Of a stretch of DNA of 49,982 nucleotides, positions 17,032 to 40,400 are shown piece by piece. Source of the stretch: Candidatus Aenigmatarchaeota archaeon (GTDB lineage: Archaea; Aenigmatarchaeota; Aenigmatarchaeia; QMZP01); the NCBI GenBank assembly GCA_017609225.1, contig JAFCEK010000001.1:1-49982 (forward strand). The letters run 5' to 3'. Under the pieces are notes generated by a model. That model did no database searches. It was not told the origin of the DNA and saw only the letters and a program-made list of their open reading frames with translations. The stretch's first letter is position 1, and every line of letters begins with the position of its first letter. Made by a program: the position numbers and the translations under genes.

Positions 17032-20000
17032 ATGGATATAAAGCACCTTGCACTGGAAATCTTTGCAGTAGCGGTATCCTATTTATTGTTAATGTTACCT
17101 GTAACATCAGCCACAAGCGTTAATATATTTTTCAATGGCATACAGCAGGACACAACAGATATATCTCCCGGAAATCTTGTAAGCAAAGAGATAAACGTGT
17201 ATCATGATGCTGATGATATAACATGGACAAACATAAAGGTTCTTGTAACCCTGAGCAGCGCAAGCCTTTCCCACAGCATAAAGAAAATATATTTATACAA
17301 ATGCAAAACACTGTCGCCATCCGCATGCATCCAGGGAACGCCCCAGGTATTTGACAGCTGGATTGATACAGAGCTTTCATGGAATGATATATCCCAGAGT
17401 GAGGGCGTGGGGGTTTATCCCCAAACAGCAAACCTGATGTTCCTTGTTAAGCTTGAAGACTTCAATGGCAAGGCAAGCTGGGTTGGCTTCTGGGATACCA
17501 TAAGAAGAATAGACTACAACATATTCAATCATTATAGTTATCCCCTCAATGAAATTGAATTTCATGCAAAATCCCTGGATATGATAGAACCCATAAAGAC
17601 ATACATAGAAAATTACCAGATGATTCCCTTCAACTGGGCAGAGAAGGTTGTATTCAGGATGGCAAACATACTCTATGGTGTTGGTGCAAACGAGCAGGAA
17701 ATTGAACAGACACCACCGTTTTTTGATGGGGCCCAGACAAGTACAAACCAGGTAACAAGCATAGGAAAGGACTATTACTTTGTGCTTTCAAACATCACAA
17801 GCGGCATAACCAATCCTGTAACCATGCGTTTGAATCCATCATTCACATGCGGCAATGGCCAATGCGAAACAGACTTGGGAGAAACCACATCAACATGCTG
17901 CTATGACTGCGGCTGCGCAGCAGATTTCTATTGCGATATGAGTGATGAACAGAATCCGGAAACAGGCGCCTGCAGGTCGCTAACAGAAATCACAGTAGAT
18001 GTAACAAGCACATCAATGGCTGACATAACTGACTGCAGCCAGAACCAGCAGTTAACTATAACAGCGCAGATAAATAATGCACCTTCCAACCTTCCCGCAA
18101 CGCTTACAGGATATATAAAACTGAATGAAACCCAGTATAATGTTCCATGCCAGTCAAGCATCCCAGGAATATATGAATGCACTGTAAATCTGCAGCCAGA
18201 GGTAAGATGCGGTGACGGAAGCTATGTTCTTGGTCCAAATGAGATTAATTTCACCATACCATTTAATGACGGACCTGATATGATAACTGAAACAATAGGA
18301 ACAGAATTTTCTGACATAACAGTAAACTACAACTGCGAATGTGCAGGCGGATATTATTGTGATTCCGGTCTGAGAATGTGCAAGCCGGAGGGGCAGATAG
18401 CGCTTGTTATAATAAATGTTACCTCATATATGGATAATTACAATCCTGCAGGGGATAACATAGGAATATATGCAACAATAAACAATCCCCCATCTGACAT
18501 GAGTATTACAGGAAGTTCATATGTTCTGGGAAACATAACCTTTGACGGAAGTTCTTCGCCTGGTTCCTCAGGAAGCGTGACATGTGATGAAAGCAACAAC
18601 ATATATTACTGCAGCATACCGCTGTTTATACAAAACTATGACCACTCAAGGCAGTATATAGTGAACGGAAACAGCCTCTCATTTACAATAAGCTTTAGTG
18701 ATGGCGGCAACTCCATAACAAAAACGCTTACAACAGGGTTTTCCGATATTATAGTGCCTTCGTACAGATGCGGTGATACTACATGCAATGCCGAAGAGAA
18801 TTCAGATAACTGCTGCCTGGACTGCGGATGTCCCAATCCCGATGATTACTGTGACAGGGTTTACGGCTGCGTGAACGAAAACAACATAACCATGGTTATC
18901 GATACAATAACACCTGAAAACCTGACTGACTGCAAGATACCCCATGTGCTTAACATAAAAGCAAGAATACTCAACGCGCCAAGCGACCTTGTTCTCAATT
19001 ATTATTATTATCTGCAGAATGATGAAATAAAGGGCTGGAACCTGTTATGCATGGAATCACCGCCAGGATCAAATATGGGAATTTTTGAATGCCAGCTTGC
19101 TGTTCCCCCCATTGATGATTGTTCCCTGCCTTATTACACGCTTGGCAATAATAAGCTGAGGTTTTCAGTTTCATTTCCAAACGGCCTCACGCAGGTTCTG
19201 ACAAAAACGCTTGAGGCTGAGTTTCAGGATATAAACATAGTTCCAACATACCATTGCGGTGACAATATATGCGAATATGACCTAAACGAGAGCGGCTCTG
19301 TGTGCTGTATTGACTGCATATGCGGCTCAGACCCGGATTTTGGATCTGAATATTACTGCGACTATGACCCCCAGCTGAATCCAAACGGCACATGCCTCCC
19401 AAAAAACAACATAACACTTGTTATAGACAAGCCGATGGCAGTTGTGCATTTCACAAGCTGCGAGAAGGCAAACACAGTAAACATAAAGGCGCATGTTGAA
19501 AACCAGCCTTCAGGCATGATTGTTGAAAATATTTTCGGCATTTTCAACGGGGAAACAGCTGAATATATCTCATGCACACCTGAAATGGGAATAATTACAA
19601 CACCAAACTATACAGGACCTGTTGAATGGAACTCATACAACTGCAGTCTTATTGTACCTGCAGAGCAGCAATGTTCACAGGGCCAGACATACACCTATAG
19701 CAATAACTCACTCTCATTCTTCATAAGCTATACAAACGGTTTGGGAAAAAGGGAAACACAGATACTTACACAGCCATATCCTGATGTGACAATAACCCAG
19801 AATATAAGAACACTTTATGACATAATGCAGGATGCAATCAGCAGGATGAAAGGAAAGCTTCAGGAAACCATAACACTTATGGAGGACCTCATCAAAATGT
19901 GGGAGGACTGTTTGGACATGCTGATTGCATTAACCATAGTAATGGTTATAGGAACAATTGTGGCAGGCGTTATTGGAGCCAAGACCGGAGGGACAGAAGG

Positions 20001-23019: not shown

Positions 23020-23130
23020 GCTGAACCAGAAAACCATTGTTTTCAAACAGCGGATGTATGGTTCTGGTTCAACAGCTGTTGCCTCGCCAAGAAAACCGCC
23101 GACTTTAGTCAGCGGATATACGGAGGCAAC
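23020..23130 (+). repeat. MITE-like two-hairpin repeat, copy 2 (intergenic, between convergent genes)
   Basis: Same ~110-bp sequence as the other three copies. Flanked by TTTAT and ATTAT. Confidence 0.85.
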
Positions 23131-23146
23131 ATTATATTAGTCTGAC

Positions 23147-24922
23147 TCAGAATTCTTCTTCGCTTCCAGCATCATCCTCAAACTCTTCTTCCCCGGCAGA
23201 TTCCTTTCCACTGCCAAGACCATGTTTTTTGAGAAATTTGAATGCTACAAAAACAACCACCAGCACCACAACAACTATTATAACAAGAGTGAAATCAAAA
23301 CCCCCGCCTGCACTAACAGGCTGCACTGCAGCCCCAAGAGCAATAACATTCTGAAGAAGACTGAATTTTGCGCTGGCAGAGTCATAGTATTCTTTTGCCC
23401 GGGTATAATCACTGTCTTTATATGAATCTGCAGAGCTTATATCGCTGTCTATGTCATCCAATATATAATAAAACAGGTTTTCCTGATCCAAACTAAGATT
23501 CATTCTGAAGCTGGAAAATTCCTGCTGCAGTGAATCTACATCGCCTGAAATATCCTGGAAAAATTCAGCGCTTACAACTATATTTGCTGTTCCAGCACCT
23601 GTATCTATCTCAATTGTGCCGCTGTATCTTCCGGGGCTGGGAGTTGAAAGCGAAACATTCACTATTCCTGAGCTGCCTGGTGCTATGGAATTTGGCAAAA
23701 CCACAGAAGCTATTGAGCCTATTGTTCCAGTGGCTGAATAACTAATGTTATCCATTGTGCTGTTTCCAAGGTTTGAGAGCGTGAATGTTCTGTAAATTGT
23801 TTCTCCAACTGTGCTGGTTTCAATCCATGTTGAAGGTGAAATGCTCAGGTCACCAGACACGCAGGCAGGGCAGTCCCCACCAGCGCTCCCATCACACTCA
23901 TTCATAACGCTTATGGTTATGTTTACAGGTATCCTGCCTATCACAGTTCCGTTTGAAACAATATCTGCCTGGGTTCCTATCTCCATGCTGTTTTGTATGT
24001 TGTTCAGGTTTACAGTAAAGTAAATAGTCCCTTTTCCTTCTATTGTGCTGTTGCCCAGGGTTATGCTGAGATATGGTGAAAGCGCAGATATTATGCTGGT
24101 TGACAGGTCTGCTATGCTCTCATTGCCAAGATTTCTTATCCTGAATCCTCCCTGCGAAAAGCTCTGTCCTTTTGTAACCATAACATCCAGGGAAACAGCA
24201 TCTATCTCCAGGTCAGCAGGCACATATGCCCCACCGGTTTCTTCACCTTTAATTACAAATCTTACCAGGTCACCGCCAAAGCTTGTTCCTCCGCTGTTTT
24301 GAGCGGCGAATGCCATGTAGTACTCGCCGGGCCCCAGGCTTATATTGCCTATGTAACCTCTTATGGGAGTATAATAAACCAGGCTGCCTGACTTTTCAGG
24401 CAGAAGGTCTATGCTGCTGTTGTATGTTTTGTAGCTTACACCTGTAACCCCTGTATCAGACCATACTGTTATATCAACCATGCCATTATTATTTGTTGTT
24501 ATGTTTATGGTAAGCTCTATATCACCTGCATTTACAGTGTCCTGAAATCCGCTTTCCTGACCATAGGCATCGCTAATGTTTACAGAGAATGTATAAGGTA
24601 TAAATGTTTCAGAGCCCTGATATTTTGATGCATAGAAGGGCGTGGGACCGCATGTGCTCTTTTCATCTGTATTTGAAAAATAGCAAACCCACCTGTTTCC
24701 GGACCTTGGAAACGAGCCAAAACCATCTGCTATGCCAAAAACCTGCCATCTTACCCTTATGGACTTGGAATATTCCCCCGGATCTGCTACTGCAATAAAG
24801 CTTGCGTTTGCGGAGAATTTTTCAGGGATAAATGTTACTATGGGGTCGGGAAGCGCCTGCACATTAACCAAAACCAGTGCAAAAACCAGAAACCCGGCTG
24901 CCAGCCCCGCACATATTTTCAT
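23147..24922 (-). CDS. Surface protein (591 aa) with Sec signal, beta-rich repeats, C-terminal TM and acidic tail
   Basis: MKICAGLAAGFLVFALVLVNVQA. C-terminal FDFTLVIIVVVVLVVVFVAFKF followed by KKHG...EEEFEDDAGSEEEF. Confidence 0.8.
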   Translation of the reverse strand: MKICAGLAAGFLVFALVLVNVQALPDPIVTFIPEKFSANASFIAVADPGEYSKSIRVRWQVFGIADGFGSFPRSGNRWVCYFSNTDEKSTCGPTPFYASKYQGSETFIPYTFSVNISDAYGQESGFQDTVNAGDIELTINITTNNNGMVDITVWSDTGVTGVSYKTYNSSIDLLPEKSGSLVYYTPIRGYIGNISLGPGEYYMAFAAQNSGGTSFGGDLVRFVIKGEETGGAYVPADLEIDAVSLDVMVTKGQSFSQGGFRIRNLGNESIADLSTSIISALSPYLSITLGNSTIEGKGTIYFTVNLNNIQNSMEIGTQADIVSNGTVIGRIPVNITISVMNECDGSAGGDCPACVSGDLSISPSTWIETSTVGETIYRTFTLSNLGNSTMDNISYSATGTIGSIASVVLPNSIAPGSSGIVNVSLSTPSPGRYSGTIEIDTGAGTANIVVSAEFFQDISGDVDSLQQEFSSFRMNLSLDQENLFYYILDDIDSDISSADSYKDSDYTRAKEYYDSASAKFSLLQNVIALGAAVQPVSAGGGFDFTLVIIVVVVLVVVFVAFKFLKKHGLGSGKESAGEEEFEDDAGSEEEF

Positions 24923-27380: not shown

Positions 27381-27490
27381 GTTGAACCAGAAAACCATTG
27401 TTTTCAAACAGTGGATGTATGGCTTTGGTTCAACAGCTGTTGCCTCGCCAAGAAAACCGCCGACTTTAGTCGCGGATATACGGAGGCAAC
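27381..27490 (+). repeat. MITE-like two-hairpin repeat, copy 3 (just upstream of the pyrG start, antisense to it)
   Basis: Flanked on both sides by ATTAT (27376-27380 and 27491-27495). Confidence 0.85.
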
Positions 27491-27574
27491 ATTATGAACT
27501 ATGATATATTGTATGAAAGAAGAATAAAAACCTTTGGTAACATCAGTTTTTATTCTAATTCTGTAAATTAGAGG

Positions 27575-31397: not shown

Positions 31398-32597
31398 ATG
31401 AAAATAATAATGATTGTTCTGGACGGGGCAGGAGACCTGCCTGACAGCAGTGGCAGCACGCCCATATCCCTGGCAAAAAAACCAGGCATTGATTCCCTGG
31501 CAAGAAAAGGCCAGGCAGGCCTGCTTGATATGGGTTACAAGGGAAGGAACGAGGATGTTAATTCTGACATGGGTTATCTTGTTCTGCTTGGCTGCTATTC
31601 AAAGGAAGATTATCCGGGCAGGGGATACATAGAGGCGCTTGGAGCAGGGCTTGAGCCAGGCCCTGATGACATAGCTATAAGAGGCAATTTTGCAACGCTT
31701 GATGCCCGGGGAAATATCAGAGACAGAAGGGCAGGCAGGGATGAAACAGGACTGGAGGAGCTTGCTGAAAAGCTTGACGGCATGGAGATAGACGGGGTTC
31801 ATTTTCAGGTAAGGAAATCATCAGGCCACAGGGTATGCATACTCATGAAAGGAAAAAACCTTTCTGACAATATTATGCCAAACGATACGCAAAGGGTTAA
31901 TGTCCCACTGCCGCAGATAAAGCCAAAGGGAATTGAAGCCAAGTTCACTGCTTCTGTGCTTAACAAGTTCATATACAGGGCAAACAAAATCCTCTCAGAA
32001 GATCCTGTAAACAGGAAAAGAAAGATGCCTGCCAACACAATCCTGATAAGAAATGCAGGGAGAAGGGTTGCTGTGAAAAGCTTTGGGGAAAGATTTGGCT
32101 TGAGGGCATGCAGTGTTTCAGGCCTTGCTGTTGTGAAGGGTGTGTGCAGATTCCTGAATATTGATAATATAGATGTGCCTGGAGCCACAGGCCTGCCTGA
32201 CACAGACCTTAAGGCAAAGGCAGATGCGGTTATTGAAAACATAAAAAACTATGATTTTGTTTTTTTGCACATAAATGGAATGGACACATTATCGCATGAA
32301 AGAAATCCGGAAGGAAAGAAAAAATTCCTGGAAAAGATAGACAGGATTGTGTTATCAGAGCTTATTAAGGAAATAAAACCCCGTGAGAATATTTATATAA
32401 TAACATGCGACCACAGGTCTGCAAGCAGCCCTTCATACAGGGGATATGAACACCTGACACTTCCTGTTCCTGCTCTTGTGTCAGGAAACGGGATAAAGCC
32501 ATCAGGCCTGAAAACATGGAATGAAAATGCCTGTGAGGAGGGATTTCATATTTCAGGCAATGATTTGATGCCCTGGATACTGAAAACCTTTAAATAA
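31398..32597 (+). CDS. apgM: Cofactor-independent phosphoglycerate mutase, archaeal type
   Basis: MIVLDGAGD metal-binding start. The length and overall pattern fit the ApgM family. Confidence 0.8.
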   Translation: MKIIMIVLDGAGDLPDSSGSTPISLAKKPGIDSLARKGQAGLLDMGYKGRNEDVNSDMGYLVLLGCYSKEDYPGRGYIEALGAGLEPGPDDIAIRGNFATLDARGNIRDRRAGRDETGLEELAEKLDGMEIDGVHFQVRKSSGHRVCILMKGKNLSDNIMPNDTQRVNVPLPQIKPKGIEAKFTASVLNKFIYRANKILSEDPVNRKRKMPANTILIRNAGRRVAVKSFGERFGLRACSVSGLAVVKGVCRFLNIDNIDVPGATGLPDTDLKAKADAVIENIKNYDFVFLHINGMDTLSHERNPEGKKKFLEKIDRIVLSELIKEIKPRENIYIITCDHRSASSPSYRGYEHLTLPVPALVSGNGIKPSGLKTWNENACEEGFHISGNDLMPWILKTFK

Positions 32598-32707
32598 CGT
32601 CAGTTTATATAATCTATAAATAAGATTTCCATAAGCATTCACTGGCAATCTTGAAAACAATAATGCCTGAATTCAACAAAATCGCTATTGGAAGATATTG
32701 GATTGGG

Positions 32708-32881
32708 TTACTGCTAACGCAGCAGAGGTTTAATAGTTAAAAAGCGGAGGTAGCAGGAAAGGCCTTCTCCGCCAATACAGCGAGAAGGTTATATAGCTAA
32801 ATAAGTGGAGGTATCAAGAAAAGCATTCTCCACTTGTATAGCAAACAAGTTGGAGAACTAAATAAGTGGAGGTATCATTAT
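32708..32881 (+). promoter_or_regulatory. psmA leader: three tandem hairpin-plus-AAG(C/T)GGAGGTA modules
   Basis: Hairpins at about 32711-32725, 32763-32788 and 32826-32857. Each is followed by (T)AA(A/T)A..AAGYGGAGGTA. The last GGAGGT (32868-32873) lies 8 nt before the ATG. Confidence 0.6.
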
Positions 32882-33586
32882 ATGGCACAGCCAATGCCGC
32901 CAAGTTATATGGCTTATGACAGAACCATCGTGGTTTTTTCACCGGATGGAAGGCTTTTGCAGGTGGAATATGCAAGGCAGATGGTAAAGAACGGCTCAAC
33001 ATCAATGGGAATTGTAACGAATAATGCTGTTTTGCTGGGGACCGTAAAGCCATTAATGCCTCTTGCAGTAGCAGAGTCCTACAAGAAAACACACAAGCTT
33101 GACGAGCACATAGCAATGGTTTCAGCCGGCAGCCTTGCAGATGCCAGAAGCCTTGCCGAACTGGCAAGGGTAAAGGCGCAGATAAACAGAATAACATACA
33201 GCGAGCCGGTATCTGTTTACACATTAACAAAATATATTTGCGACAGGAAACATCTTGTAACCCAGTATGCCGGTGTAAGGCCGTACGGGGTTGGTTTGCT
33301 TATAGGCGGAATAGACAAAGCAGGAGCCAGGCTTTTTGAAACAGAACCTTCAGGAACAATGATAGAATGGAAGGCGCAGGCAATAGGAAGAGGCGCAGAA
33401 AAGGCAAAAAAAGTGCTTGAAAGGGGATACAAGGATGGCATGGATGAAAAATCAGCTATCAAGCTCCTTCTAAAAGCCCTTAAATCAGGTGAAAAAACAC
33501 TAACACCGGAAAACATAGATGTTCTGGTGATAAAGAAAAACAGCATAGAAAGGCTTTCAAAGGAAGAACTGAAGAAAGCACTATAA
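32882..33586 (+). CDS. psmA: 20S proteasome alpha subunit
   Basis: MAQPMPPSYMAYDRTIVVFSPDGRLLQVEYA is the canonical alpha-subunit N-terminus. The ATG at 32882 follows a GGAGGT SD. Confidence 0.93.
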   Translation: MAQPMPPSYMAYDRTIVVFSPDGRLLQVEYARQMVKNGSTSMGIVTNNAVLLGTVKPLMPLAVAESYKKTHKLDEHIAMVSAGSLADARSLAELARVKAQINRITYSEPVSVYTLTKYICDRKHLVTQYAGVRPYGVGLLIGGIDKAGARLFETEPSGTMIEWKAQAIGRGAEKAKKVLERGYKDGMDEKSAIKLLLKALKSGEKTLTPENIDVLVIKKNSIERLSKEELKKAL

Positions 33587-33620
33587 TCAGTTGTGCCTGA
33601 AAAACTGGGCCTGCAGACTG

Positions 33621-33721
33621 CTAAGCTCCACTAATATAGCAAAACAAGTGGAGGTTGGGAAAGGCCTTCTCCACTAATATAGCAATGCAATAATATAGCA
33701 AAACAAGTGGAGGTTGTATAT
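33621..33721 (+). promoter_or_regulatory. SBDS leader: two CTCCACT...AGTGGAGGT hairpins, the second sequestering the SD
   Basis: CTCCACT 33626-33632 pairs with AGTGGAG 33647-33653. CTCCACT 33669-33675 pairs with AGTGGAG 33706-33712. GGAGGT is at 33709-33714 and the ATG at 33722. Confidence 0.55.
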
Positions 33722-34426
33722 ATGACTTCTGTAGACAAGGCGGTGACAGCAAGGATAACAAAGGACCATACAAGCTTTGAGATTCTTGTGGACCCTGACA
33801 AGGCACTTCAGTTCAAAAAAGGCATGGATGTTTCCATGGATAATCTTCTGGTTGTGAGAGAGATATTTACTGACTCAAAAAAGGGAGAAAGGGCATCAGG
33901 CTCTGACCTGGAAAAGCATTTTGGCACATCAGATGTGTTGAAAATTTCAGAGCAGATACTGAAAACAGGAGAGTTGCAGCTGACAACAGAGCAGAGAAGA
34001 AAGCTTCTTGATGAGAAGAAAAAACAGATAGCAAATATAATATCAAAACAGGGGATTGACCCGAAAACAAAACTGCCTCATCCCCCGCAGAGAATAATAA
34101 ATGCAATGGAAGATGCCCATGTAAGTGTGGAGGCGTTCAGGCCCGCAGAAGAGCAGATACAAAGGGTTCTGGATGCAATCCAGGAAATAATACCCATAAG
34201 CATAGAGAGGCTTGAAATAGCAGTAAAGGTGCCAATGCAGTATGCAGGCAAGGTAAGCTCAATAATGCATAACCTGGCTCCTGTGAAGAAGGAGGAATGG
34301 AAATCAGATGCCTGGCTTGCACTTATTGAAATTCCTGCAGGCATGCAGGCAGATATTTACAGCAAGCTGAATGATATGACATCAGGCCAGGTGGAGGTAA
34401 AAGTTGTAAAGAGAATACATGTATAG
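33722..34426 (+). CDS. sdo1: Ribosome maturation protein SBDS/Sdo1
   Basis: SFEILVDPDKALQFKKG N-terminal FYSH-domain pattern. Conserved position between psmA and rrp4. Confidence 0.88.
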   Translation: MTSVDKAVTARITKDHTSFEILVDPDKALQFKKGMDVSMDNLLVVREIFTDSKKGERASGSDLEKHFGTSDVLKISEQILKTGELQLTTEQRRKLLDEKKKQIANIISKQGIDPKTKLPHPPQRIINAMEDAHVSVEAFRPAEEQIQRVLDAIQEIIPISIERLEIAVKVPMQYAGKVSSIMHNLAPVKKEEWKSDAWLALIEIPAGMQADIYSKLNDMTSGQVEVKVVKRIHV

Positions 34427-34515
34427 GCAGATAATCAGCACTGATAACATCTATATATAAATAATGCCGCATAAAAATAGGATTATAGCGAAAAATAGTA
34501 AGGAATTAGGTTTGT

Positions 34516-35307
34516 ATGGAAAAAGCAGAAGCTGAAAAACAAAAAGGCGAAGGCAAGCTGTTAAAAGGCGAAAGAGAACTGGTTTTGCCAGGAGACAAGA
34601 TAGTGGAATCCATGGATTTCCTTCCGGGCAAAAACTGCTTCAGGGAGGGAAACACAATACTTGCAAAAAGACTCGGGATACTAAGCGTAAGCAACAGGGT
34701 TATATCTGTTATACCCCTGAACAGCGTGTACATACCAAAACCAGGCGACATGGTGATAGGAGAGGTTGTTGAGATTCAGCCAACCGGCTGGGTTGTGAAC
34801 ATAGATGCGCCCCAGGATGCATACCTTCCGCTTTCAGGCGTAAGAAAATTCATTGACACAACAAAAATGGATCTTTCCAAATTTTACGGGATGGGTGATA
34901 TAATATACGCAAAGATAGTATCTTCAAACCAGGGCTCAATCCATCTTACTATGCAGGATTCCAGGGCAAGAAAGCTGATAGGAGGAAGGATAGCGAAAAT
35001 AAACCCTGCAAAGGTTCCAAGGCTTATAGGAAAACAGGGCTCAATGATCAGCATGATAAAAAGCAAAACAGGATGCAGGATAAGCGTAGGCCAGAACGGG
35101 CTTATATGGATTGACGGAAAAAAATGCAATGAGGTTTTGATGGTTATAAAGCTGATTGAGGACGAGGCGCAGGTTGAAGGCCTTACAGACAGGATATCAG
35201 AAATGCTCGGAGGAGAGGAAAAAACCAAGGCAGGCAGCACAGGAAATGCAGCCAGCCAAGGCACGGAAGGGCATTCACAGGAGGAAGGTGTTAAAAATGA
35301 GAATTGA
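34516..35307 (+). CDS. rrp4: Exosome RNA-binding subunit Rrp4 (S1 + KH)
   Basis: S1 domain (PKPGDMVIGEVVEIQPTGWVVNI) and KH domain (VPRLIGKQGSMISMIKSKTGCRISV). Confidence 0.9.
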   Translation: MEKAEAEKQKGEGKLLKGERELVLPGDKIVESMDFLPGKNCFREGNTILAKRLGILSVSNRVISVIPLNSVYIPKPGDMVIGEVVEIQPTGWVVNIDAPQDAYLPLSGVRKFIDTTKMDLSKFYGMGDIIYAKIVSSNQGSIHLTMQDSRARKLIGGRIAKINPAKVPRLIGKQGSMISMIKSKTGCRISVGQNGLIWIDGKKCNEVLMVIKLIEDEAQVEGLTDRISEMLGGEEKTKAGSTGNAASQGTEGHSQEEGVKNEN

Positions 35308-35977
35308 CAAAAGAAAATATGACGAGTTAAGGCCGTTGGAAATAAAGGCAGGCGTTATACCAAACGCAAACGGCTCAGCCATGGTCAGAATGGGAAAAAC
35401 CATAGCTGTTGCAGCGGTTTATGGCCCAAGGGAGATGTTCCCGAAATTCAAGCAGAAATCAAACAAGGCTGTTCTGAACACATTGTACACGATGGTACCT
35501 TTTTCTACAACAGAAAGAGTAAGACCCGGGCGTTCAAGAAGGTCAATGGAGATATGCAAGGTAACAAGGCAGGCACTGGAACCTGCAATATTTCTGGAAG
35601 AATTCCCAAAATCAGTGATTGATGTTTACATAAACATAATACAGGCAGATGCAGGAACAAGAACAGCAGGAATAAACGCAGCCTCGGTTGCACTGGCAGA
35701 TGCAGGAATACCAATGAGGGATCTGGTGGCATCTGTTGCGGGGGGAAAAATAGGAAAAAACTTTCTTGTTGACCTCTGCATGGAAGAGGAGGAAGAAACA
35801 GAGGCTGATGTGCCTGTTGCTTACATGCCGAGAACCAGGCAGATAACACTCCTCCAGATGGACGGGGACCTGCCAAAGGAGGATGTAAAGGAAATAATAA
35901 AGCTTGCAATAAAATCAATTGAAAAAATATACAAAGAGCAGAGAAAGGCACTGGAAGCAAGGTGGAAAAAAGGGTGA
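35297..35977 (+). CDS. rrp41: Exosome RNase PH subunit Rrp41
   Basis: MRIDKRKYDELRPLEIKAGVIPNANGSAMVRMGKT is an RNase PH pattern. Its start overlaps the end of rrp4. Confidence 0.9.
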   Translation: MRIDKRKYDELRPLEIKAGVIPNANGSAMVRMGKTIAVAAVYGPREMFPKFKQKSNKAVLNTLYTMVPFSTTERVRPGRSRRSMEICKVTRQALEPAIFLEEFPKSVIDVYINIIQADAGTRTAGINAASVALADAGIPMRDLVASVAGGKIGKNFLVDLCMEEEEETEADVPVAYMPRTRQITLLQMDGDLPKEDVKEIIKLAIKSIEKIYKEQRKALEARWKKG

Positions 35978-35982
35978 TAAAA

Positions 35983-36753
35983 ATGATAATGCAGGACCAG
36001 TATGTGCTTGACATGGCAGCAGAAGGCAAAAGGGTTGACGGAAGAAAGCATGATGAATTCAGAAAAATAGAAATTGAAAAGAACCCCCTGGAAAAGCCTG
36101 AGGGCTCTGCAAGGGTAAGGATTGGCAAAACAGATGTTATAGTGGGTGTGAAAATGGAGGTTGGGGAGCCGTTCCCTGACAAGCCGGATGAAGGAACCCT
36201 GATGGTTGGAGCAGAGTTTTCTCCCATGGCATCGCCTGACTTTGAGGCAGGTCCTCCAAGGGAAGATGCTGTGGAGCTTGCAAGGGTTGTGGACAGGGGA
36301 ATAAGGGAATCAGGAGCAATAGATGTTAAAAAGCTGTGCATCAAAAAGAAAGAGAAGGTATGGATTGTTATGATTGACATTCAGATAATGAATCATGACG
36401 GGAACCTTTTTGATGCATCAACCCTGGGAGCTATAACAGCCCTGCTTAATACAAAAATACCGGAGTATGATGAAAAAAAAGATGAAATAAACTACGAGAA
36501 AAAAACAAAGGTGCTGCCTGTCACATGCAAGCCGGTTTCTGTTACATTTGCAAAGATTGGAAACCAGATTTTTGTGGACCCCGGCCTTGACGAGGAAAAC
36601 GTTGAAGGAGGAAGAATAACAGTCACAACAAAGGACAATGGAAATATATGCGCTATACAAAAGGGAAGTCCTGTGCCCTTTACACTGGATGAAATAGAAA
36701 AAATATTTGATATGGCAATTGAAAAAGGCAAGGAGCTGAGAAAGCTTGTTTGA
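35983..36753 (+). CDS. rrp42: Exosome RNase PH-like subunit Rrp42
   Basis: GKRVDGRKHDEFRKIEIEKNPLEKPEGSARVRIGKTDVIVGVK. The ATG at 35983 is preferred over the GTG at 35962. Confidence 0.88.
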   Translation: MIMQDQYVLDMAAEGKRVDGRKHDEFRKIEIEKNPLEKPEGSARVRIGKTDVIVGVKMEVGEPFPDKPDEGTLMVGAEFSPMASPDFEAGPPREDAVELARVVDRGIRESGAIDVKKLCIKKKEKVWIVMIDIQIMNHDGNLFDASTLGAITALLNTKIPEYDEKKDEINYEKKTKVLPVTCKPVSVTFAKIGNQIFVDPGLDEENVEGGRITVTTKDNGNICAIQKGSPVPFTLDEIEKIFDMAIEKGKELRKLV

Positions 36754-36769
36754 GAGCAGGAGATGAGAT

Positions 36770-36985
36770 ATGCCAAGAACAAAGAAAGTGGGTGCAGCAG
36801 GGAAGTTCGGCTCAAGATACGGAAAAACAATAAGAGACAGATATGTTGATATTCAAAAACTCAAAAAGAAAAAGAACACATGCCCAAAATGCCTGAGCCA
36901 GAGGATAAAAAGGGTTTCAGCAGGCATATGGGAATGCAGAAAATGCGGGCTGAAGTTTGCAGGCAAGGCATATAAACCCAAATGA
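36770..36985 (+). CDS. rpl37ae: Ribosomal protein eL43 (L37Ae)
   Basis: [18 protein letters not shown] plus the CPKC...CRKC zinc ribbon. Confidence 0.93.
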
Positions 36986-37045
36986 GATATATTAATATAA
37001 AATATTTCTCCACTAATAGTCATGTGGAGCAAGGCTGTAGATTAT

Positions 37046-37183
37046 ATGTACAGGTGTCTTAACTGCGGAAAGCAGGTAGAGCTGGACTTAAAGACAGCCA
37101 AAAAAGTAATCTGCCCCTACTGCGGCTACAGGATTCTGAAAAAGGAAAGGCCAAAGGTAATAAAAAAGGTAAGGGCAATATAA
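37046..37183 (+). CDS. rpoP: DNA-directed RNA polymerase subunit P (Rpo12), 45 aa
   Basis: Not in the ORF track. Manual translation gives MYRCLNCGKQVELDLKTAKKVICPYCGYRILKKERPKVIKKVRAI*. It has a CxxC...CxxC zinc ribbon and the typical KERP...VKAx tail. It sits in the conserved position after rpl37ae. Confidence 0.85.
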   Translation: MYRCLNCGKQVELDLKTAKKVICPYCGYRILKKERPKVIKKVRAI

Positions 37184-37184
37184 T

Positions 37185-37294
37185 GTTGCCTCCGTATATC
37201 CGCCTACTAAAGTCGGCGGTTTTCTTGGCGAGGCAACAGCTGTTGAACCAGAACCATACATCCACTGTTTGAAAACAATGGTTTTCTGGTTCAG
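37185..37294 (-). repeat. MITE-like two-hairpin repeat, copy 4 (inverted; between the rpoP stop and pfdB)
   Basis: The reverse complement matches copies 1-3. It begins 2 nt after the rpoP TAA and runs up to the truncated N-terminus of pfdB. Confidence 0.85.
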
Positions 37295-37321
37295 GCATAC
37301 CAGCAGCAGATACAGGGCCTG

Positions 37322-37591
37322 ATGGCGCAGAAGGAAGCGCTAAATATGCAGCTCATGGAAATAAGAAAAGCCCTTGAGGAGCTGGAAAAAACAAAAGAAA
37401 AAGAGGTTTACAGGCTTTCGGGTCCCATTCTGATAAAATCAACAAAGGCGGAAGTAAAAAGCATGCTTAAGGACAAAGAAGAGCTTATAAACATGAAAAT
37501 AAAAACCCTGGAAAAGGGAGAAAAAAAGATGAAAGGAAAGATTGAAGAGCTCAGAGACAAACTCACAAAAAATGATTCAGATGCAGGCTAG
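37322..37591 (+). CDS. pfdB: Prefoldin beta subunit (N-terminally short)
   Basis: MAQKEALNMQLMEIRKALEELEK...VYRLSGPILIKSTKAEV...coiled coil. The in-frame upstream codons AYQQQIQGL continue the expected prefoldin N-terminal helix but run into the repeat with no start codon. Confidence 0.8.
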   Translation: MAQKEALNMQLMEIRKALEELEKTKEKEVYRLSGPILIKSTKAEVKSMLKDKEELINMKIKTLEKGEKKMKGKIEELRDKLTKNDSDAG

Positions 37592-37616
37592 CTTGCAAGG
37601 CCATGGAGGTGTTCAT

Positions 37617-37877
37617 ATGAACAAGGAGATAGTCACCTTTCTTGAAGATATAATAAATGACAGGGGAATTCCCAGAAACATAAAAACAAACCTTGAAAAT
37701 TCAATGGAGATGCTGAATGAAAAAGAAACCACAGAAGAGGAGAAACTTGCTGATATAATATCCATTCTTGATGAGGCCTCAACAGACCCCAATGTATCAT
37801 TTCACACAAGAACCCTTATCTGGAATACGATTTCTTTCCTTGAGGAAATGAAAAACAGAACACAGAAAGAGCGTTAA
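37617..37877 (+). CDS. UPF0147-family small helical protein
   Basis: The ATG at 37617 is preceded by GGAGGTG. The sequence IINDRGIPRNIKTNLE...STDPNVSFHTRTLIWN fits the UPF0147 pattern. Confidence 0.6.
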   Translation: MNKEIVTFLEDIINDRGIPRNIKTNLENSMEMLNEKETTEEEKLADIISILDEASTDPNVSFHTRTLIWNTISFLEEMKNRTQKER

Positions 37878-37983
37878 GCTGTTGTTGAGCTGGCAATATG
37901 GCAGCATTTAAGGAACTGGTTTTAACCATAAATCTTATAAAGCTTACTTTCATATACTGATATACTGCATTTAAGGATGAAAA

Positions 37984-38108
37984 GAAAGGCCTTCTCTGCT
38001 AATACAGCGAGAAGGCTGCATAGCTAAATAAGTGGAGGTATCATAAGAGGCATTCTCCACTTGTATAGCAAACAAGTTGGAGAACTAAATAAGTGGAGGT
38101 AGTATGCT
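37984..38108 (+). promoter_or_regulatory. sepF leader: near-duplicate of the psmA leader (two hairpin-plus-AAGTGGAGGTA modules)
   Basis: 52 nt (gcattctccacttgtatagcaaacaagttggagaactaaataagtggaggta) are identical to 32823-32874. The preceding module differs at only a few positions. Confidence 0.6.
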
Positions 38109-38462
38109 ATGGGATTCAACATTCTGAAAAGAGGCGCTGAAATAGAAGAAGAGGTTGAGGAGCCATCAGAGGAGTACATAGAAGTTAATGTCATGGATTC
38201 CGGAGCCAAAAAAGGCGCCATAGGAATAAAGATAGAGAAACTTAACGAATTTGCTGACACAGAAAGGGTCCTGAGGGCAGTAAGAGACGGAAACATAATC
38301 TTCCTCAAGATAAAGGGACTCAAGGAAAAGGACATAGGAGAGCTTAAAAGGGCAGTGGACAAGCTGAAAAAGGCAATAACAGCAAACAACGGAGACATTG
38401 CAGGCGTTGAGCAGGACTGGCTCGTTTTAACACCGGAATTCGCAACGGTGCACAGAGAATAA
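38109..38462 (+). CDS. sepF: SepF-like cell division protein (DUF552)
   Basis: Acidic N-terminal linker followed by IKIEKLNEFADTERVLRAVRDGNIIFLKIKGL...GDIAGVEQDWLVLTP, the SepF core pattern. Confidence 0.7.
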   Translation: MGFNILKRGAEIEEEVEEPSEEYIEVNVMDSGAKKGAIGIKIEKLNEFADTERVLRAVRDGNIIFLKIKGLKEKDIGELKRAVDKLKKAITANNGDIAGVEQDWLVLTPEFATVHRE

Positions 38463-38519: not shown

Positions 38520-40400
38520 CTATTTTAATCTCACTGTTTCCATGTTTTTTGGCGCCATGGTTTCGCATCTGAACATCTTGTGAATATCCCTTGCAAGCTC
38601 CGTGCATTTTCTGCTTTCACCATGGTTTACTATAACCCTTTCAGGCCTGCTTGCCAGTTTGTACATATATTTTATAAGCTCATTCCTTCCCGAATGACCT
38701 GACAAACCATCCAGGGTTTTCACTTCCATCTCTATTTTAAGCGCCTTTGTTTTTCCGCCTTCCCCTGTTATGGGTATTTCCTTCCAGCCCTTCTGAATCC
38801 TGCTTCCAAGGCTTGCAGGTGACTGCCATCCAACAAAAACAAGCATGTTCTTTTTGTCATGCGCAAAGCCCTTCAGATATTCCACTGAAGGACCTCCTAT
38901 AAGCATGCCTGAGGTTGCAATCACAACACATGGCTCTGCAGAATCTATTATATCATTCCTTTCCTTTGGGGCAACCCTGTGAAACATTTCTGAAATAAAG
39001 GGATTTTTCCCCCTGTGGAATATGTCCCTCTGGAGATAATGGGACAGATATTCAGGATATGCTGTATGTATTGCTGTTGCATCCCAGACCATGCCCTCCA
39101 TGTAAACAGGATGATCAAAATTATATGCTGCAAGTATGGTCATAACCTCCTGGGCTCTTCCCACAGCAAAGCTTGGTATCAGAACCTTACCCCCTCTTTT
39201 CATTGTGTCATTAACCATTTTCATAAACTCCTCCTCAACCTGCTTTCTGGGCGGGGTTATATCCTCTGATGCTCCATATGTTGATTCAATGATAAGTGTT
39301 TCAACCCTCTGGAAATCAGTGTAGGCAGGGTTAAAGAGCCTTGAAGGCCCGAATTTCATATCCCCTGTATAGAGTATGTTGTGCAAACCTTCTCCAATAT
39401 GGAGATGTATCATTGAGCTTCCCAGAAGATGCCCTGCAGGCTGGAATGTCAGCCTCATGTTGGGGCATATATCAGAAACCTCTCCATAATTCAAAACAAC
39501 AGAATGCTTAACAGCCTTTTCAACATCCTTTTTTGAGTAGTATAATTTTTTGCCCTCTTTCTGGCACACATCAATATAATCCAGGCACAGCAGAACCATA
39601 AGGTCCCTTGTTGGCGCAGTGCAGTAGAAAGGGCCTTTAAACCCGTTTTTGTAAAGCCATGGTATGTATGCGCAATGGTCTATATGGCTGTGCGTAAGGC
39701 ATATTGCATTGAGTTCATCCATATTAAACTCGGGAAGATTAAGATATGGAACCTCATCAGAGCCGGGTTCAATCCCGCAGTCAAGAAGCACATTGGAATG
39801 CGGTGTCTGCACAAGAATAGAGCTTCTTCCCACCTGCCTGAAGCCGCCAAGGGCAGAGATTCTTATCCATTCCTTGTTTTTATCCCCTATCTCTATCTCG
39901 CTGTTTATCTTCTGTCCAACCCTGTTAAGGAATTTTTTCCTGTAATCTATTTCAGAATGCAGAAAGTTTCTAACAGCCCTTACTATCTCCGAGTCTATGG
40001 CAGGCGCCCTCTCTATTTTCGGAAGCCATAATGTTTCTGTTTTTATTCTCTTGTATGTTTCACCACCCTTCCCTATAACAAGCCCTGGTTTTTTTGCCTC
40101 TATTATAACCTTGCCAAGCTCAGGTTCAAAATAGATTGCCTGTATTCCTGCCTCTTCAGGAACTATTTTGTTTATAATCTCCTTTGTTTTTTCCTGGTCT
40201 GTTGTTATGGTCAAATCCGGCCTTACCTCTACCCTTTTCTTCAGCTCCTTGACTATATTTTTTATCATCTCTTCGCTGTTCTGGAAGAACTCCCTGCTTT
40301 TTGTGTATATGACAAGCTCCGAGCCCTCAAACTTCACCTCGGATACCTTTGCATCTGCAGGCAGCCTTCCCTGGAGTTCTTTCAGAATATTTACACTCAT
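38520..40400 (-). CDS. aCPSF1: aCPSF1 ribonuclease (KH-KH, metallo-beta-lactamase, beta-CASP)
   Basis: 626 aa. N-terminal KH region (GLVIGKGGETYKRI), the HSHIDHCAY metallo-beta-lactamase motif, and a beta-CASP C-terminal region. Confidence 0.92.
   Translation of the reverse strand: MSVNILKELQGRLPADAKVSEVKFEGSELVIYTKSREFFQNSEEMIKNIVKELKKRVEVRPDLTITTDQEKTKEIINKIVPEEAGIQAIYFEPELGKVIIEAKKPGLVIGKGGETYKRIKTETLWLPKIERAPAIDSEIVRAVRNFLHSEIDYRKKFLNRVGQKINSEIEIGDKNKEWIRISALGGFRQVGRSSILVQTPHSNVLLDCGIEPGSDEVPYLNLPEFNMDELNAICLTHSHIDHCAYIPWLYKNGFKGPFYCTAPTRDLMVLLCLDYIDVCQKEGKKLYYSKKDVEKAVKHSVVLNYGEVSDICPNMRLTFQPAGHLLGSSMIHLHIGEGLHNILYTGDMKFGPSRLFNPAYTDFQRVETLIIESTYGASEDITPPRKQVEEEFMKMVNDTMKRGGKVLIPSFAVGRAQEVMTILAAYNFDHPVYMEGMVWDATAIHTAYPEYLSHYLQRDIFHRGKNPFISEMFHRVAPKERNDIIDSAEPCVVIATSGMLIGGPSVEYLKGFAHDKKNMLVFVGWQSPASLGSRIQKGWKEIPITGEGGKTKALKIEMEVKTLDGLSGHSGRNELIKYMYKLASRPERVIVNHGESRKCTELARDIHKMFRCETMAPKNMETVRLK

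Follow-up and report, generated by a model that had tools for sequence, protein, structure and literature searches.

Several described systems resemble, in one respect or another, the leader modules reported here. The STAB-SD elements of Gram-positive leaders, such as that of Bacillus thuringiensis cry3A, present a perfect Shine-Dalgarno (SD)-like site in the long 5'UTR of a highly expressed gene, with no start codon near, and are documented to stabilise mRNA through SD copies at which translation does not start (PMC4113751). Another class comprises SD-sequestering hairpins and RNA thermometers such as ROSE and fourU, in which an upstream anti-SD pairs with the ribosome-binding site and alternative structures could expose it. 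REP/BIME sequences, Neisseria Correia elements and PATEs are short dispersed intergenic hairpin repeats that are co-transcribed and vary between close lineages, and archaeal SD-bearing 5'UTRs (e.g. those of alba and tuf) precede SD-led, abundant housekeeping genes in leaderless-rich genomes. To our knowledge, very little is known of post-transcriptional control in archaea and essentially nothing in DPANN archaea, which have few transcription factors and are not yet amenable to genetic manipulation.

We analyzed a stretch of 49,982 nt, hereafter the window, from the 880-kb genome of a tiny DPANN archaeon of symbiotic type, in comparison with the genome of a sister genus and other relatives. It contains a repeat combining a hairpin and a ribosome-binding site that is genuine and unusual. 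A module of about 60 nt precedes at least seven genes of this genome, namely psmA, sepF, SBDS, ftsZ, EF-1alpha (tuf), S6e (rps6e) and, in part, alba (gene identities from Pfam), and consists of a pyrimidine box (YTTCTCCRC-N3-YATAGC), the return of the stem and an extended SD copy, CTAAAYAAGYGGAGGT, the last of which sits 7-8 nt before the ATG. The initial annotation had recognized a recurring leader element with a multi-partner anti-SD box, which stands, in a set of genes that proved too narrow, since ftsZ, tuf, rps6e and alba belong to it too. In total there are about 13 modules at nine loci, sharing 70-93% identity and in sense orientation throughout: eleven full-length modules with CM scores of 42-77 bits which, like the short SBDS copy and the rps6e module retrieved by nhmmer, are all oriented toward the next downstream gene. 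At five loci the last SD copy, which is the sole SD there, has a spacing to the ATG of exactly 7-8 nt. Every SD copy keeps a perfect GGAGGT, and the non-initiating copies are found 59-61 nt (119 nt in tuf) 5' of the true SD. The latter copies are not starts of leader peptides, for no ATG, GTG or TTG can be read at 4-10 nt from them. The 16S 3' end is canonical (...GGAUCACCUCCU) and cannot pair with the AAGT before GGAGGT, which excludes this tetranucleotide, confined to the module family, as added rRNA pairing.

The genome search proposed in the initial annotation, carried out with the pattern CTCCAC-N(4-45)-GTGGAG, returned 10 matches vs about 1.4 expected (mean of ten Markov simulations giving 0-4 matches); nine of the ten lie in leaders, with a spacer of exactly 32 nt in five and of 31 nt in a sixth. 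Upstream complements of the SD of at least 7 nt occur at 8 of 447 SD-led starts vs 2 in the reversed control, and five of these eight are members of the module family; outside the family such complements are at control level, which rules out anti-SD hairpins as a genome-wide habit. Scanning positions 32400-38300 against Rfam 15 (cmscan, E<=5) gave nothing but weak matches to unrelated families, of which two overlap a leader, with scores of 17 bits (gathering 59.6) and 14 bits (gathering 127), and no K-turn or C/D-box motif was seen by eye. Hairpin repeats of other kinds are abundant in this genome.

The leaders of psmA and sepF had been described as about 90% identical, and they are so over 129 nt (32757-32885 vs 37984-38112). 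They share, as had also been claimed, an identical 52-mer, gcattctccacttgtatagcaaacaagttggagaactaaataagtggaggta (32823-32874 and 38050-38101), which exists in these two copies only and nowhere else in the genome. The layout proposed for psmA holds as well: three tandem modules end in AAG(C/T)GGAGGTA (see table 1 for the coordinates), and only the last of these SD-like sites is followed by an ATG (32882-32884). Module 2 of psmA, which the repeat search assigned to repeat family D1, has a CM score of 42.4 bits and forms the stem CCTTCTC/GAGAAGG (32763-32769 with 32782-32788), a hairpin that appears in the MFE fold; module 1 of sepF is 89% identical to it, scores 41.9 bits and has a stem supported by the fold. 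Within module 3 of psmA, CTCCACTT (32828-32835) can pair with either AAGTTGGAG (32847-32855) or AAGTGGAG (32864-32871). These are the partners named previously, with both of their coordinates corrected by 1 nt, and the three alternative pairings of this module amount to -11.2, -13.5 and -14.8 kcal/mol. The upstream regions of psmA in relatives present BRE/TATA of the same type, and the predicted TATA of sepF has the highest PWM score (7.8) across the sepF upstream region. (An exact-sequence look-up of the SepF protein found no record.)

The SBDS leader contains CTCCACT (33669-33675) facing AGTGGAG of its SD (33706-33712), together with a decoy copy (33626-33653), exactly where the initial annotation had placed them; a PWM scan of the psmA-SBDS spacer detected no promoter-like site and no T-run. 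The arms found earlier in the rpoP leader, CTCCAC (37008-37013) and GTGGAG (37024-37029), are equally exact, but the second stands 16 nt from the ATG, a distance too large for an SD. This mini-hairpin is a weak or remnant member of the family, and was not found in the rpoP leaders of the sister genus and of three other lineages (L131, L132 and L136).

Table 1. Leader modules and predicted promoters (positions in the window, unless a contig is named)
Feature	Position	Strand	Sequence and remarks
psmA promoter region (predicted)	32588..32619	+	three canonical TATA-like octamers, 263-294 nt 5' of ATG
psmA TATA-like octamers	32588-32595, 32603-32610, 32612-32619	+	TTTAAATA, TTTATATA, TCTATAAA; PWM 12.2, 7.3, 8.2
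psmA module 1, degenerate	32708..32755	+	small hairpin CTGCtaacGCAG, then SD-like AAGCGGAGGT (32742-32751), no start codon behind
psmA module 2, type 2	32756..32816	+	box GGCCTTCTCCGCC (32761-32773), SD-like copy AAGTGGAGGT (32803-32812)
psmA module 3, type 1	32817..32881	+	box TTCTCCACTTG (32826-32836), loop TATAGCAAA; CM 71.5 bits
psmA module 3, 3' part			inner decoy CAAGTTGGAGAA (32846-32857), true SD AAGTGGAGGT (32864-32873), 8 nt, ATG 32882
psmA-SBDS spacer	33587..33721	+	39 nt unique sequence, then two modules; ATG 33722
SBDS module 1, short	33626-33655	+	CTCCACT...AGTGGAGGT; CM 25 bits
SBDS module 2	33669-33714	+	3' arm doubles as SBDS SD
rpoP mini-hairpin	37008..37029	+	CTCCACtaatagtcatGTGGAG, 16 nt 5' of ATG 37046; 3' arm not SD
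sepF promoter TATA (predicted)	37933..37940	+	CTTATAAA, 176 nt 5' of ATG; PWM 7.8
sepF module 1, type 2	37983..38043	+	box CCTTCTCTGC, stem GCCTTCTC/GAGAAGGC, SD-like copy AAGTGGAGGT (38030-38039)
sepF module 2, type 1	38044..38108	+	holds 52-mer of psmA module 3 (38050-38101); CM 71.4 bits
sepF true SD	38091-38100	+	AAGTGGAGGT; ATG at 38109
ftsZ leader, beyond window	C53:1042
EF-1alpha leader, beyond window	C58:5292
S6e leader, beyond window	C58	-
alba leader, beyond window	C61:20240		SD part only
Further copy, beyond window	C40		between divergent genes

The modules are very probably part of the mRNA, and hence RNA leader elements rather than promoters, because predicted promoters lie upstream of the arrays and because of the arrangement of rps6e and psmA-SBDS in the sister genus. 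With a PWM built on 30 leaderless promoters from the studied genome, the best promoters of the module-bearing genes are situated 123-294 nt 5' of the ATG (weakly for ftsZ, score 5.4), and no T-run of five or more lies between them and the ATGs. The A/T tracts of the modules score below 4, the listing threshold, vs at least 9 for the genuine promoters of the training set; their CTAAATA tract lies 24-26 nt from the ATG and has no invariant TTT, whereas the TATA-to-ATG spacing of leaderless genes is 27-31 nt, without GGAGG in between. Score and spacing together rule out these tracts as promoters. The sense strand folds better than the antisense by 5-7 kcal/mol in all four leaders compared (sense-strand z-scores of -4.2, -3.9, -3.0 and -1.4), and the leaders of the family contain more structure than 58 SD-led leaders from outside it (median -33 vs -22 kcal/mol, p=0.006). 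Leaderless mRNAs are predicted to be common in the genome, with SD-led leaders beside them, and in 30 family genomes tuf typically has a long, hairpin-rich 5'UTR preceded by a canonical TATA.

In the sister genus, rps6e possesses a 5'UTR part (acccggcag...gaactggg), downstream of the TATA, that is common to the studied genome, where about 120 nt of modules stand between this part and the SD. Similarly, the SBDS ATG of the sister genus overlaps the psmA stop codon, a junction occupied by a 136-nt module insert in the studied genome. The two comparisons show what are very probably insertions of modules into an ancestral 5'UTR (rps6e) or operon junction (psmA-SBDS). Our search covered 47 family genomes, four further syntenic lineages (reached via PsmA homologues) and two public collections, and within this set the module family is carried only by the studied genome and the sister genus. 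Pattern and CM searches of the 47 family genomes retrieved the latter alone, plus one weak match (G008) without gene-start context, and the public collections of genome contigs and metagenome contigs yielded a single chance match apiece, one from a Rikenellaceae genome and the other lying within a coding sequence. No module was found in the four syntenic lineages, nor in the orthologous psmA, sepF and ftsZ leaders of the sister genus and four other lineages; the psmA-SBDS spacers of other lineages measure 8-60 nt.

The reading that we favor, with a confidence just short of even, is that the element constitutes a lineage-specific, duplicating family of modular 5'UTR cassettes for expression and stability, endowed with latent switch capacity. 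Housekeeping genes (psmA, the SBDS-exosome operon, sepF, ftsZ, EF-1alpha, S6e and alba) would carry one to three modules in the stretch from a canonical BRE/TATA promoter to the start codon, with the last SD copy acting as the working ribosome-binding site. The sequence pattern suggests an origin by tandem duplication, followed by copying from locus to locus via recombination or gene conversion, probably in the common lineage of the two genera and with more expansion in the studied genome. Once transcribed in the sense direction, the box would pair with an SD copy into stable stem-loops; where a leader has several modules, the box would be captured by the mutated inner decoy or by an SD copy further upstream, leaving the true SD open. 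The cassette may then function as a portable high-expression leader with an optimised initiation region, the stem-loops, and possibly SD-like landing sites for 30S subunits, shielding long 5'UTRs from 5'-to-3' decay. The genome encodes aCPSF1 (863 bits) and a KH-less aCPSF2-like beta-CASP RNase, which makes decay of this kind plausible. We take the housekeeping genes that bear the cassette to be highly expressed and their products abundant in this organism, as general knowledge would have it. The near-isoenergetic pairings would represent a latent switch, of which SBDS may make use. The part of the proposal modelled on STAB-SD is weakened because the folds predict upstream SD copies largely engaged by the box, which would make them poor 30S landing sites.

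The initial annotation had instead proposed a regulated translational switch, which we consider a distinct if minor possibility. Under a common signal the box would change partners, from the true SD (OFF) to the decoy or an upstream SD copy (ON) or back. The signal could be temperature, an RNA-binding protein on the conserved box and YATAGC loop, or free 30S subunits, whose occupation of the upstream SD copies would free the box. Division, proteasome, ribosome-biogenesis and translation genes, a set that is indeed coherent in function and growth-related, would thereby be co-regulated. The folding energies of the alternatives, a check named at the time, agree with this scheme insofar as every box can choose among two or three partners of nearly equal energy. 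The pairings are mutually exclusive and about 1-4 kcal/mol apart, the anti-SD is a perfect 7-9-bp CUCCAC(UU) complement (-11 to -17.5 kcal/mol) and the MFE structure of the isolated last module is the SD-closed form. The SBDS SD is also predicted to be closed (P(unpaired) 0.09), which in these folds looks odd for a pure expression enhancer. The claim that the element can occlude or expose the SD nevertheless holds only for its alternative partners and not for occlusion as the default: in the full-length psmA, sepF and tuf leaders, as in all four leaders of the sister genus, the folds assign the box to an upstream SD copy or the inner decoy. The P(unpaired) of the true SD is 0.40-0.44 in the first three, with a genome median of 0.41 for ordinary genes, and 0.48-0.65 in three of the four leaders of the sister genus (0.24 for prefoldin). 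By these predictions SBDS alone is clearly occluded among module leaders, and SD exposure in the family is not significantly lower than in other genes (p=0.10, n=4). The P(unpaired) of upstream SD copies is 0.14-0.2 in the tuf and C54 leaders of the sister genus and 0.8 in its alba leader. The idea of a thermometer found no support, the predicted opening with temperature being modest and generic (0.25, 0.41 and 0.62 at 20, 37 and 55 C for the sepF SD folded in silico).

Sequence comparison of box and SD likewise speaks on both sides of the switch. The bases 5' of GGAG, which are under no rRNA constraint, are tracked by the box in several leaders: GTGGAG/CTCCAC in many of them, AATCGGAG/CTCCGATT in prefoldin (8 bp) and ATGGAG/CTCCAT in alba of the sister genus, and, in the studied genome, TAGTGGAG/CTCCACTA in tuf module 2 and GCGGAG of psmA module 1 with CTCCGC (32767-32772) in the box of module 2. 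Moreover, the 18 nt of box and loop, TCTCCACTTGCATAGCAA, are identical in the tuf leaders of the two genera, as expected for a recognition site of protein or RNA; that they stay constant while the pairing partners differ can be explained by a sequence-specific trans factor no less well than by a passive stem-loop. Against this, the covariation of the box:SD helix that the initial annotation suggested looking for proved scant (one compensated pair vs four broken cells, with 94 of 500 shuffles equally good), a statistic that is uninformative because the helix is almost invariant. The tuf and C54 leaders of the sister genus have kept the box and their SD no longer matches it, and the distribution described above implies that any regulon would be very young. 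Coordinated control may be read from the common sequence, but the copying of a strong leader explains that sharing equally.

It is unlikely that the modules are a selfish or neutral hairpin repeat, kin to mini-inserts of rRNA and tRNA genes and tolerated in the non-coding parts of heavily transcribed genes, whose SD-like arm persists by descent only, with no selected role. The many hairpin repeats of the host, including a MITE of 114 nt (about 50 copies with 94-100% identity, on both strands), would fit this alternative, as would the variable presence of the modules between close lineages. A second hairpin family, GACTGCTAA...GCAGTC (6 copies vs 0 in controls), is represented in leaders of the two genera, in one tRNA gene and in the regions of the LSU and SSU rRNA genes. 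The long form of this family repeats the 6+32+6 geometry of the modules, and two of five copies have inner sequence in common with sepF module 1. (By eye, these GACTGC hairpins show no clean bulge-helix-bulge of BHB introns in the C77 tRNA and 23S copies.) No target duplication was seen at the rRNA and tRNA copies, whereas direct repeats of 16-24 nt of the local SD region do flank module arrays (SBDS, and alba and C54 of the sister genus), which tandem duplication explains equally well as target-site duplication. An IS200/IS605-type Y1 transposase is encoded, but its flanking hairpins, CCACCAGTG/CACTGGTGG, match neither CTCCAC/GTGGAG nor GACTGC/GCAGTC, which rejects mobilisation by the resident enzyme. 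What argues against a role-less repeat is the uniform orientation of the modules toward the downstream gene, the position of the last SD copy as the sole SD at five loci and the intact GGAGGT in every copy. The modules are also few and, given their range of identity, lack the many near-identical copies in both orientations that distinguish MITE, PATE and REP elements.

A bolder proposal, which we regard as quite improbable, is a titration device in which the upstream SD copies, once occupied by free 30S subunits or by a dedicated protein that reads the invariant box and loop TCTCCACTTGCATAGCAA, would free the box to close the true SD, thus establishing a cis-encoded feedback on ribosome availability, with the cassette as a portable ribosome-binding-site element spreading between genes and kin to the rRNA/tRNA hairpin mini-inserts. 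If true, one loop would tie ftsZ/sepF, psmA, SBDS-exosome, tuf/rps6e and alba to ribosome availability and cover division, proteolysis, ribosome biogenesis with RNA decay, translation and chromatin in a minimal-genome DPANN archaeon.

Very improbable, finally, is a DNA-level element outside the mRNA, either alternative promoters using the A/T-rich loop TATAGCAA or tract CTAAATAA as TATA or operator palindromes for a transcription factor of growth genes. Even if leaderless mRNAs are common, a DNA-binding protein would find a suitable site in the conserved 18-nt box, the C40 copy is followed by a promoter-like TATA (belonging to the downstream gene) and a PWM promoter at 36991 would place the rpoP transcription start within the mini-hairpin, the scores and spacing given above argue against a DNA-level role, better promoters exist upstream, the loop of psmA module 2 and sepF module 1 is TACAGCGA, a poor TATA, the SBDS modules lie inside an operon without terminator, a simple dimeric operator would need its arms closer together than 32 nt, and the G-U pairs in the stems and the greater stability of the sense strand would be meaningless for a DNA palindrome.

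Returning to the expression and stability cassette, its shared leader would offer a testable case of copy-and-paste evolution of 5'UTRs and, if regulatory, would be a compact means of co-tuning the core growth machinery. Read more modestly, as a stabilising leader for high translation, it would provide a natural archaeal expression part and indicate that long SD-led leaders coexist with leaderless mRNAs in such genomes; even a merely tolerated repeat would document how hairpin repeats colonise transcribed non-coding space in reduced genomes.

Among the known systems, STAB-SD appears comparable in that 16S-complementary, non-initiating GGAGGT copies lie in predicted 5'UTRs and the studied genome encodes beta-CASP RNases, a group to which 5'-to-3' exonucleases also belong. 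The SD copies of the modules, unlike STAB-SD, have a dedicated complementary box with which they are predicted to pair, are repeated in tandem and belong to a cassette common to many unrelated genes of an archaeal host, stabilisation being here a proposal. The weak U-rich or bulged pairing of ROSE and fourU differs from the perfect CUCCAC(UU) complement of the modules, for which a decoy or upstream SD copy competes; most module leaders are predicted to be open, and neither a weak anti-SD nor the heat-shock or virulence context of thermometers was recognized in ftsZ, sepF, tuf, rps6e, SBDS, alba and psmA, genes that are mostly not heat-shock genes. In contrast with REP/BIME, Correia elements and PATEs, the modules are few, strictly sense and strictly located just 5' of start codons, where they supply a functional SD and start context, and their arms mismatch the ends of the resident IS. 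Ordinary archaeal leaders with an SD are gene-specific, whereas here a single module cassette recurs across loci and in tandem.

The psmA and sepF leaders of the window are 90% identical across 129 nt and have in common an exact 52-mer of which the genome (880 kb, 79 contigs, 41.6% G+C) holds no third copy, in agreement with the near-identity described in the initial annotation. The unit of these leaders is a module of about 60 nt, comprising a pyrimidine "anti-SD" box, a stem return and an extended SD copy. As had also been described, the psmA leader consists of three tandem modules, each closed by AAG(C/T)GGAGGTA, and a start codon follows the last one only. The sites proposed to pair in the SBDS and rpoP leaders lie where they had been placed; those of psmA are present as well, with two coordinates shifted by one base. 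The gene immediately after sepF, in convergent orientation to it, encodes the beta-CASP ribonuclease aCPSF1, an arrangement kept in all syntenic relatives examined.

That the element recurs in leaders proved true on a wider scale than first noted, since combined nhmmer, motif and covariance-model (R1) searches of the genome found it before ftsZ, tuf (EF-1alpha), rps6e (S6e) and, in partial form, alba, as well as on contig C40 (see table). All modules are directed at the next downstream gene. (The C40 copy is flanked by two divergent genes: read as its reverse complement, it has GTGGAG 8 nt before the ATG of the gene for a VTT/DedA-family membrane protein, and its forward orientation faces a UPF0047 gene, whose own TATA intervenes.) The genome has 10 occurrences of the pattern CTCCAC-N(4-45)-GTGGAG, whereas ten Markov simulations gave 0-4 (mean 1.4); nine of the 10 pairs are within leaders, and the arms are spaced by exactly 32 nt in five cases and 31 nt in a sixth. 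The conserved core has three pieces, namely box A (YTTCTCCRC-NNN-YATAGC), box B (CTAAAYAAGYGGAGGT) and a spacer ending in TATATGG, start codon included. Because the 3' end of the 16S rRNA is canonical (GGAUCACCUCCU), rRNA pairing is limited to GGAGGT(G); the AAGT prefix conserved in module SDs is confined to the family. At SD-led genes outside it, upstream complements do not exceed the control level.

Coordinates of leaders, modules, predicted promoters, repeats and genes (C-numbers, contigs of the genome; unprefixed coordinates, the window; negative values, position-matrix sites)
Feature	Position	Strand	Remark
psmA leader	32757-32885
sepF leader	37984-38112
Shared 52-mer	32823-32874; 38050-38101
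psmA ATG	32882
aCPSF1 gene	38520-40400	minus	626 aa; 864 bits to TIGR03675
ftsZ leader module	C53:1042
tuf leader	C58:5292		three modules
rps6e leader	C58	minus	CCTTCTC/GAGAAGG module and one more hairpin
alba leader	C61:20240		CTAAACAAGTGGAGGT part only
C40 module	C40:16481-16533
VTT/DedA gene	C40:16478	minus
psmA promoter sites	-294/-279/-270
sepF promoter site	-176
tuf promoter site	-232
rps6e promoter site	-207
alba promoter site	-123
ftsZ promoter sites	-143/-166		weak
GACTGCTAA...GCAGTC copies	C53:14556-14585, 16808-16835, 18775-18818, 23114-23156; C77:14835-14863; C58:470-512
LSU rRNA gene	C53:15630-20463	minus	4834-nt match span (model, 2987 nt)
SSU rRNA gene	C53:21196-24565	minus	3370-nt match span (model, 1478 nt)
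MITE copies	1460-1565; 23021-23138; 27383-27495; 37180-37293
ORF after rpoP	37322-37591		89 aa
Y1 transposase gene	C54:6744-7084; C50:1-133		split over contig ends
ttcccatagttaaagaattGTGGAGGTaactgaaaagctttAGGGCTCCtttgGAGTCCCTgttttt repeat	C24:~134; C58:~4881; C61:~11679; C64:~19933; C28:4420-4720
AAGCTTnAATTCATTGGGGGATGAATTnAAGCTT palindrome	C53:~810-850

Among 47 family genomes, pattern and model searches found modules only in this genome and in that of a sister genus (G015), where they precede tuf and the gene for an acidic 154-aa protein; the psmA, sepF and ftsZ leaders of G015 lack them, as do four more syntenic lineages identified via PsmA homologues (~75% identity). Scans of a species-representative genome collection and a metagenome collection gave chance matches only. 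The restricted distribution thus indicates a young module family, expanded in the genome under study. Two pairs of loci are nearly identical, psmA/sepF and ftsZ/tuf (one mismatch in 50 nt), which points to inter-locus copying, while periods of 59-61 nt speak for tandem duplication. In a relative (locus L132) the extended SD AAGTGGAGGTG serves as the sepF SD, and it may be ancestral to that gene.

The alternative pairings of the initial annotation hold, each box having two or three mutually exclusive predicted partners. These are the SD copy that precedes it by 13-17 nt (-10 to -14 kcal/mol), a mutated decoy inside the module (-13.5 to -16 kcal/mol) and the true SD, the last copy before the ATG (-11 to -17.5 kcal/mol). 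When the psmA, sepF and tuf leaders are folded at full length, the box is taken by the upstream copy or the decoy, and the true SD has an exposure of 0.40-0.44, versus a median of 0.41 for 58 ordinary SD-led genes. Of the interpretation first envisaged, the element, its alternative pairings and its location in the mRNA (discussed below) stand, whereas coordinated control by occlusion would be no more than putative and is not the predicted default state. Only SBDS has a clearly closed true SD (0.09), with two boxes for two SD copies; of the four G015 leaders, three have exposures of 0.48-0.65 and that of prefoldin has 0.24. Family leaders are more structured than others (p=0.006), without a significant excess of SD occlusion (p=0.10, n=4). 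A formal count of covariation on the box:SD helix gave one compensated pair against four broken cells, with 94 of 500 shuffles doing equally well, and is uninformative. Looser evidence in favour of pairing comes from boxes that match differing SD-flanking dinucleotides, as in the G015 prefoldin (AATCGGAG/CTCCGATT) and alba (ATGGAG/CTCCAT) leaders, psmA modules 1-2 (GCGGAG/CTCCGC) and tuf module 2 (TAGTGGAG/CTCCACTA); other loose evidence counts against it, since in the tuf leader of G015 and the leader on its contig C54 CTCCAC is retained although it faces TCGGAG and GCGGAG. In the 18-nt box-loop TCTCCACTTGCATAGCAA the tuf leaders of the two genera do not differ, whereas its partners do, a pattern that would be consistent with a trans factor recognising it. 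A true regulated SD switch seems possible but doubtful.

A neutral or mobile hairpin repeat we regard as unlikely. An origin of the modules as a "tolerated or domesticated hairpin repeat" is kept alive by other repeats, among them a third stem type, GACTGCTAA...GCAGTC, with six copies here, two in G015 and none in controls. It occurs in the leaders of rps6e and of G015 alba and prefoldin, inside or adjoining the LSU (23S) and SSU (16S) rRNA gene regions, and, on C77, within a tRNA gene that has several introns. Its short form measures 28-30 nt and its long form 43-44 nt, the latter with the 6+32+6 geometry of the CTCCAC module, and two of five copies have inner sequence in common with sepF module 1 (21/32 identical ungapped for one copy, 0/300 shuffles as good; 5/300 for the other). 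The origin is also kept alive by a hairpin-rich MITE of ~114 nt (~50 copies, 94-100% identity, both strands) and by a Y1 transposase gene of the IS200/IS605 type, which has hairpins CCACCAGTG...CACTGGTGG at its flanks and a tandem duplicate of ~90 nt upstream; the IS200/IS605 ends do not match the module arms. Merely selfish DNA is disfavoured by the low copy number of modules, their identity of 70-93%, their strict sense orientation and their provision of the sole SD, 7-8 nt from the ATG.

Several side observations concern these repeats. Both rRNA genes are heavily interrupted, and the C77 tRNA gene, probably Val (anticodon loop CTTACAC), was missed by ARAGORN. One MITE copy begins at the stop codon of rpoP and takes up the stretch that in relatives codes for the first 15-20 residues of prefoldin-beta, so that the following ORF looks 5'-truncated (92-112 aa in relatives). 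The ttcccatagttaaagaattGTGGAGGTaactgaaaagctttAGGGCTCCtttgGAGTCCCTgttttt repeat, a terminator-like hairpin with a T-run that forms a tandem array on C28, may represent a family of small-RNA genes or an assembly-breaking repeat. Both genera conserve the long palindrome AAGCTTnAATTCATTGGGGGATGAATTnAAGCTT between the divergent aIF2-beta and ftsZ genes (in G015 on its C25, upstream of ftsZ; L109), where it is a candidate for an operator or a bidirectional terminator. The tuf leader of another family genome (G016, L102) has AAATGGAGG twice, flanking a hairpin and unrelated to the module, and the G015 alba leader (L112) likewise has the 22-nt AACAGTATACATGGAGGTGTAA twice; with such unrelated sequences, the arrangement SD copy-hairpin-SD may therefore arise repeatedly in the family.

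Leaderless mRNAs are common in this genome, canonical TTTAWAWA boxes beginning 27-31 nt upstream of many ATGs with never a GGAGG in the interval. A position matrix trained on 30 such promoters and applied to every leader placed all best sites upstream of the module arrays; the A/T tracts of modules scored under the listing threshold of 4 (training promoters, at least 9), and SBDS had no promoter-like site. No leader contains T-runs of five or more between predicted promoter and ATG. Comparison with G015 orthologues is decisive at two loci. Its SBDS ATG overlaps the psmA stop codon (spacers of 8-60 nt in other lineages), and the junction here carries a 136-nt insert with two modules; its rps6e leader has the same 5' UTR part (acccggcag...gaactggg) downstream of the TATA, which here is separated from the SD by ~120 nt of modular sequence. 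The tuf gene of 30 family genomes is invariably preceded by a canonical TATA, then a hairpin-rich 5' UTR of 60-150 nt and an SD, so long structured leaders are the norm in the family. In 4/4 leaders tested, the fold of the sense strand is more stable than that of the antisense by 5-7 kcal/mol (sense z-scores -4.2, -3.9, -3.0, -1.4), because stems use G-U pairs. We infer, rather than measure, that modules are transcribed within 5' UTRs of 95-265 nt; a DNA-level promoter or operator is highly improbable.

The reading we favour, if tentatively, is a lineage-specific, duplicating 5' UTR cassette, which would supply stable stem-loops and an optimised initiation region to abundant housekeeping mRNAs and retain a latent switch capacity. 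Beta-CASP RNases are encoded in the genome. Rfam has no matching family, and a limited literature search found no description of shared leader cassettes in archaea, a negative that amounts to no more than absence of evidence. As kinds of mechanism, anti-SD hairpins, non-initiating SD copies and transcript-embedded repeats are known; what is new is their combination in a tandemly repeated box/SD-copy cassette common to ftsZ, sepF, psmA, SBDS, tuf, rps6e and alba of a DPANN archaeon. In its proposed action the cassette would be somewhat like a STAB-SD or a 5' stem-loop stabiliser (PMC4113751).
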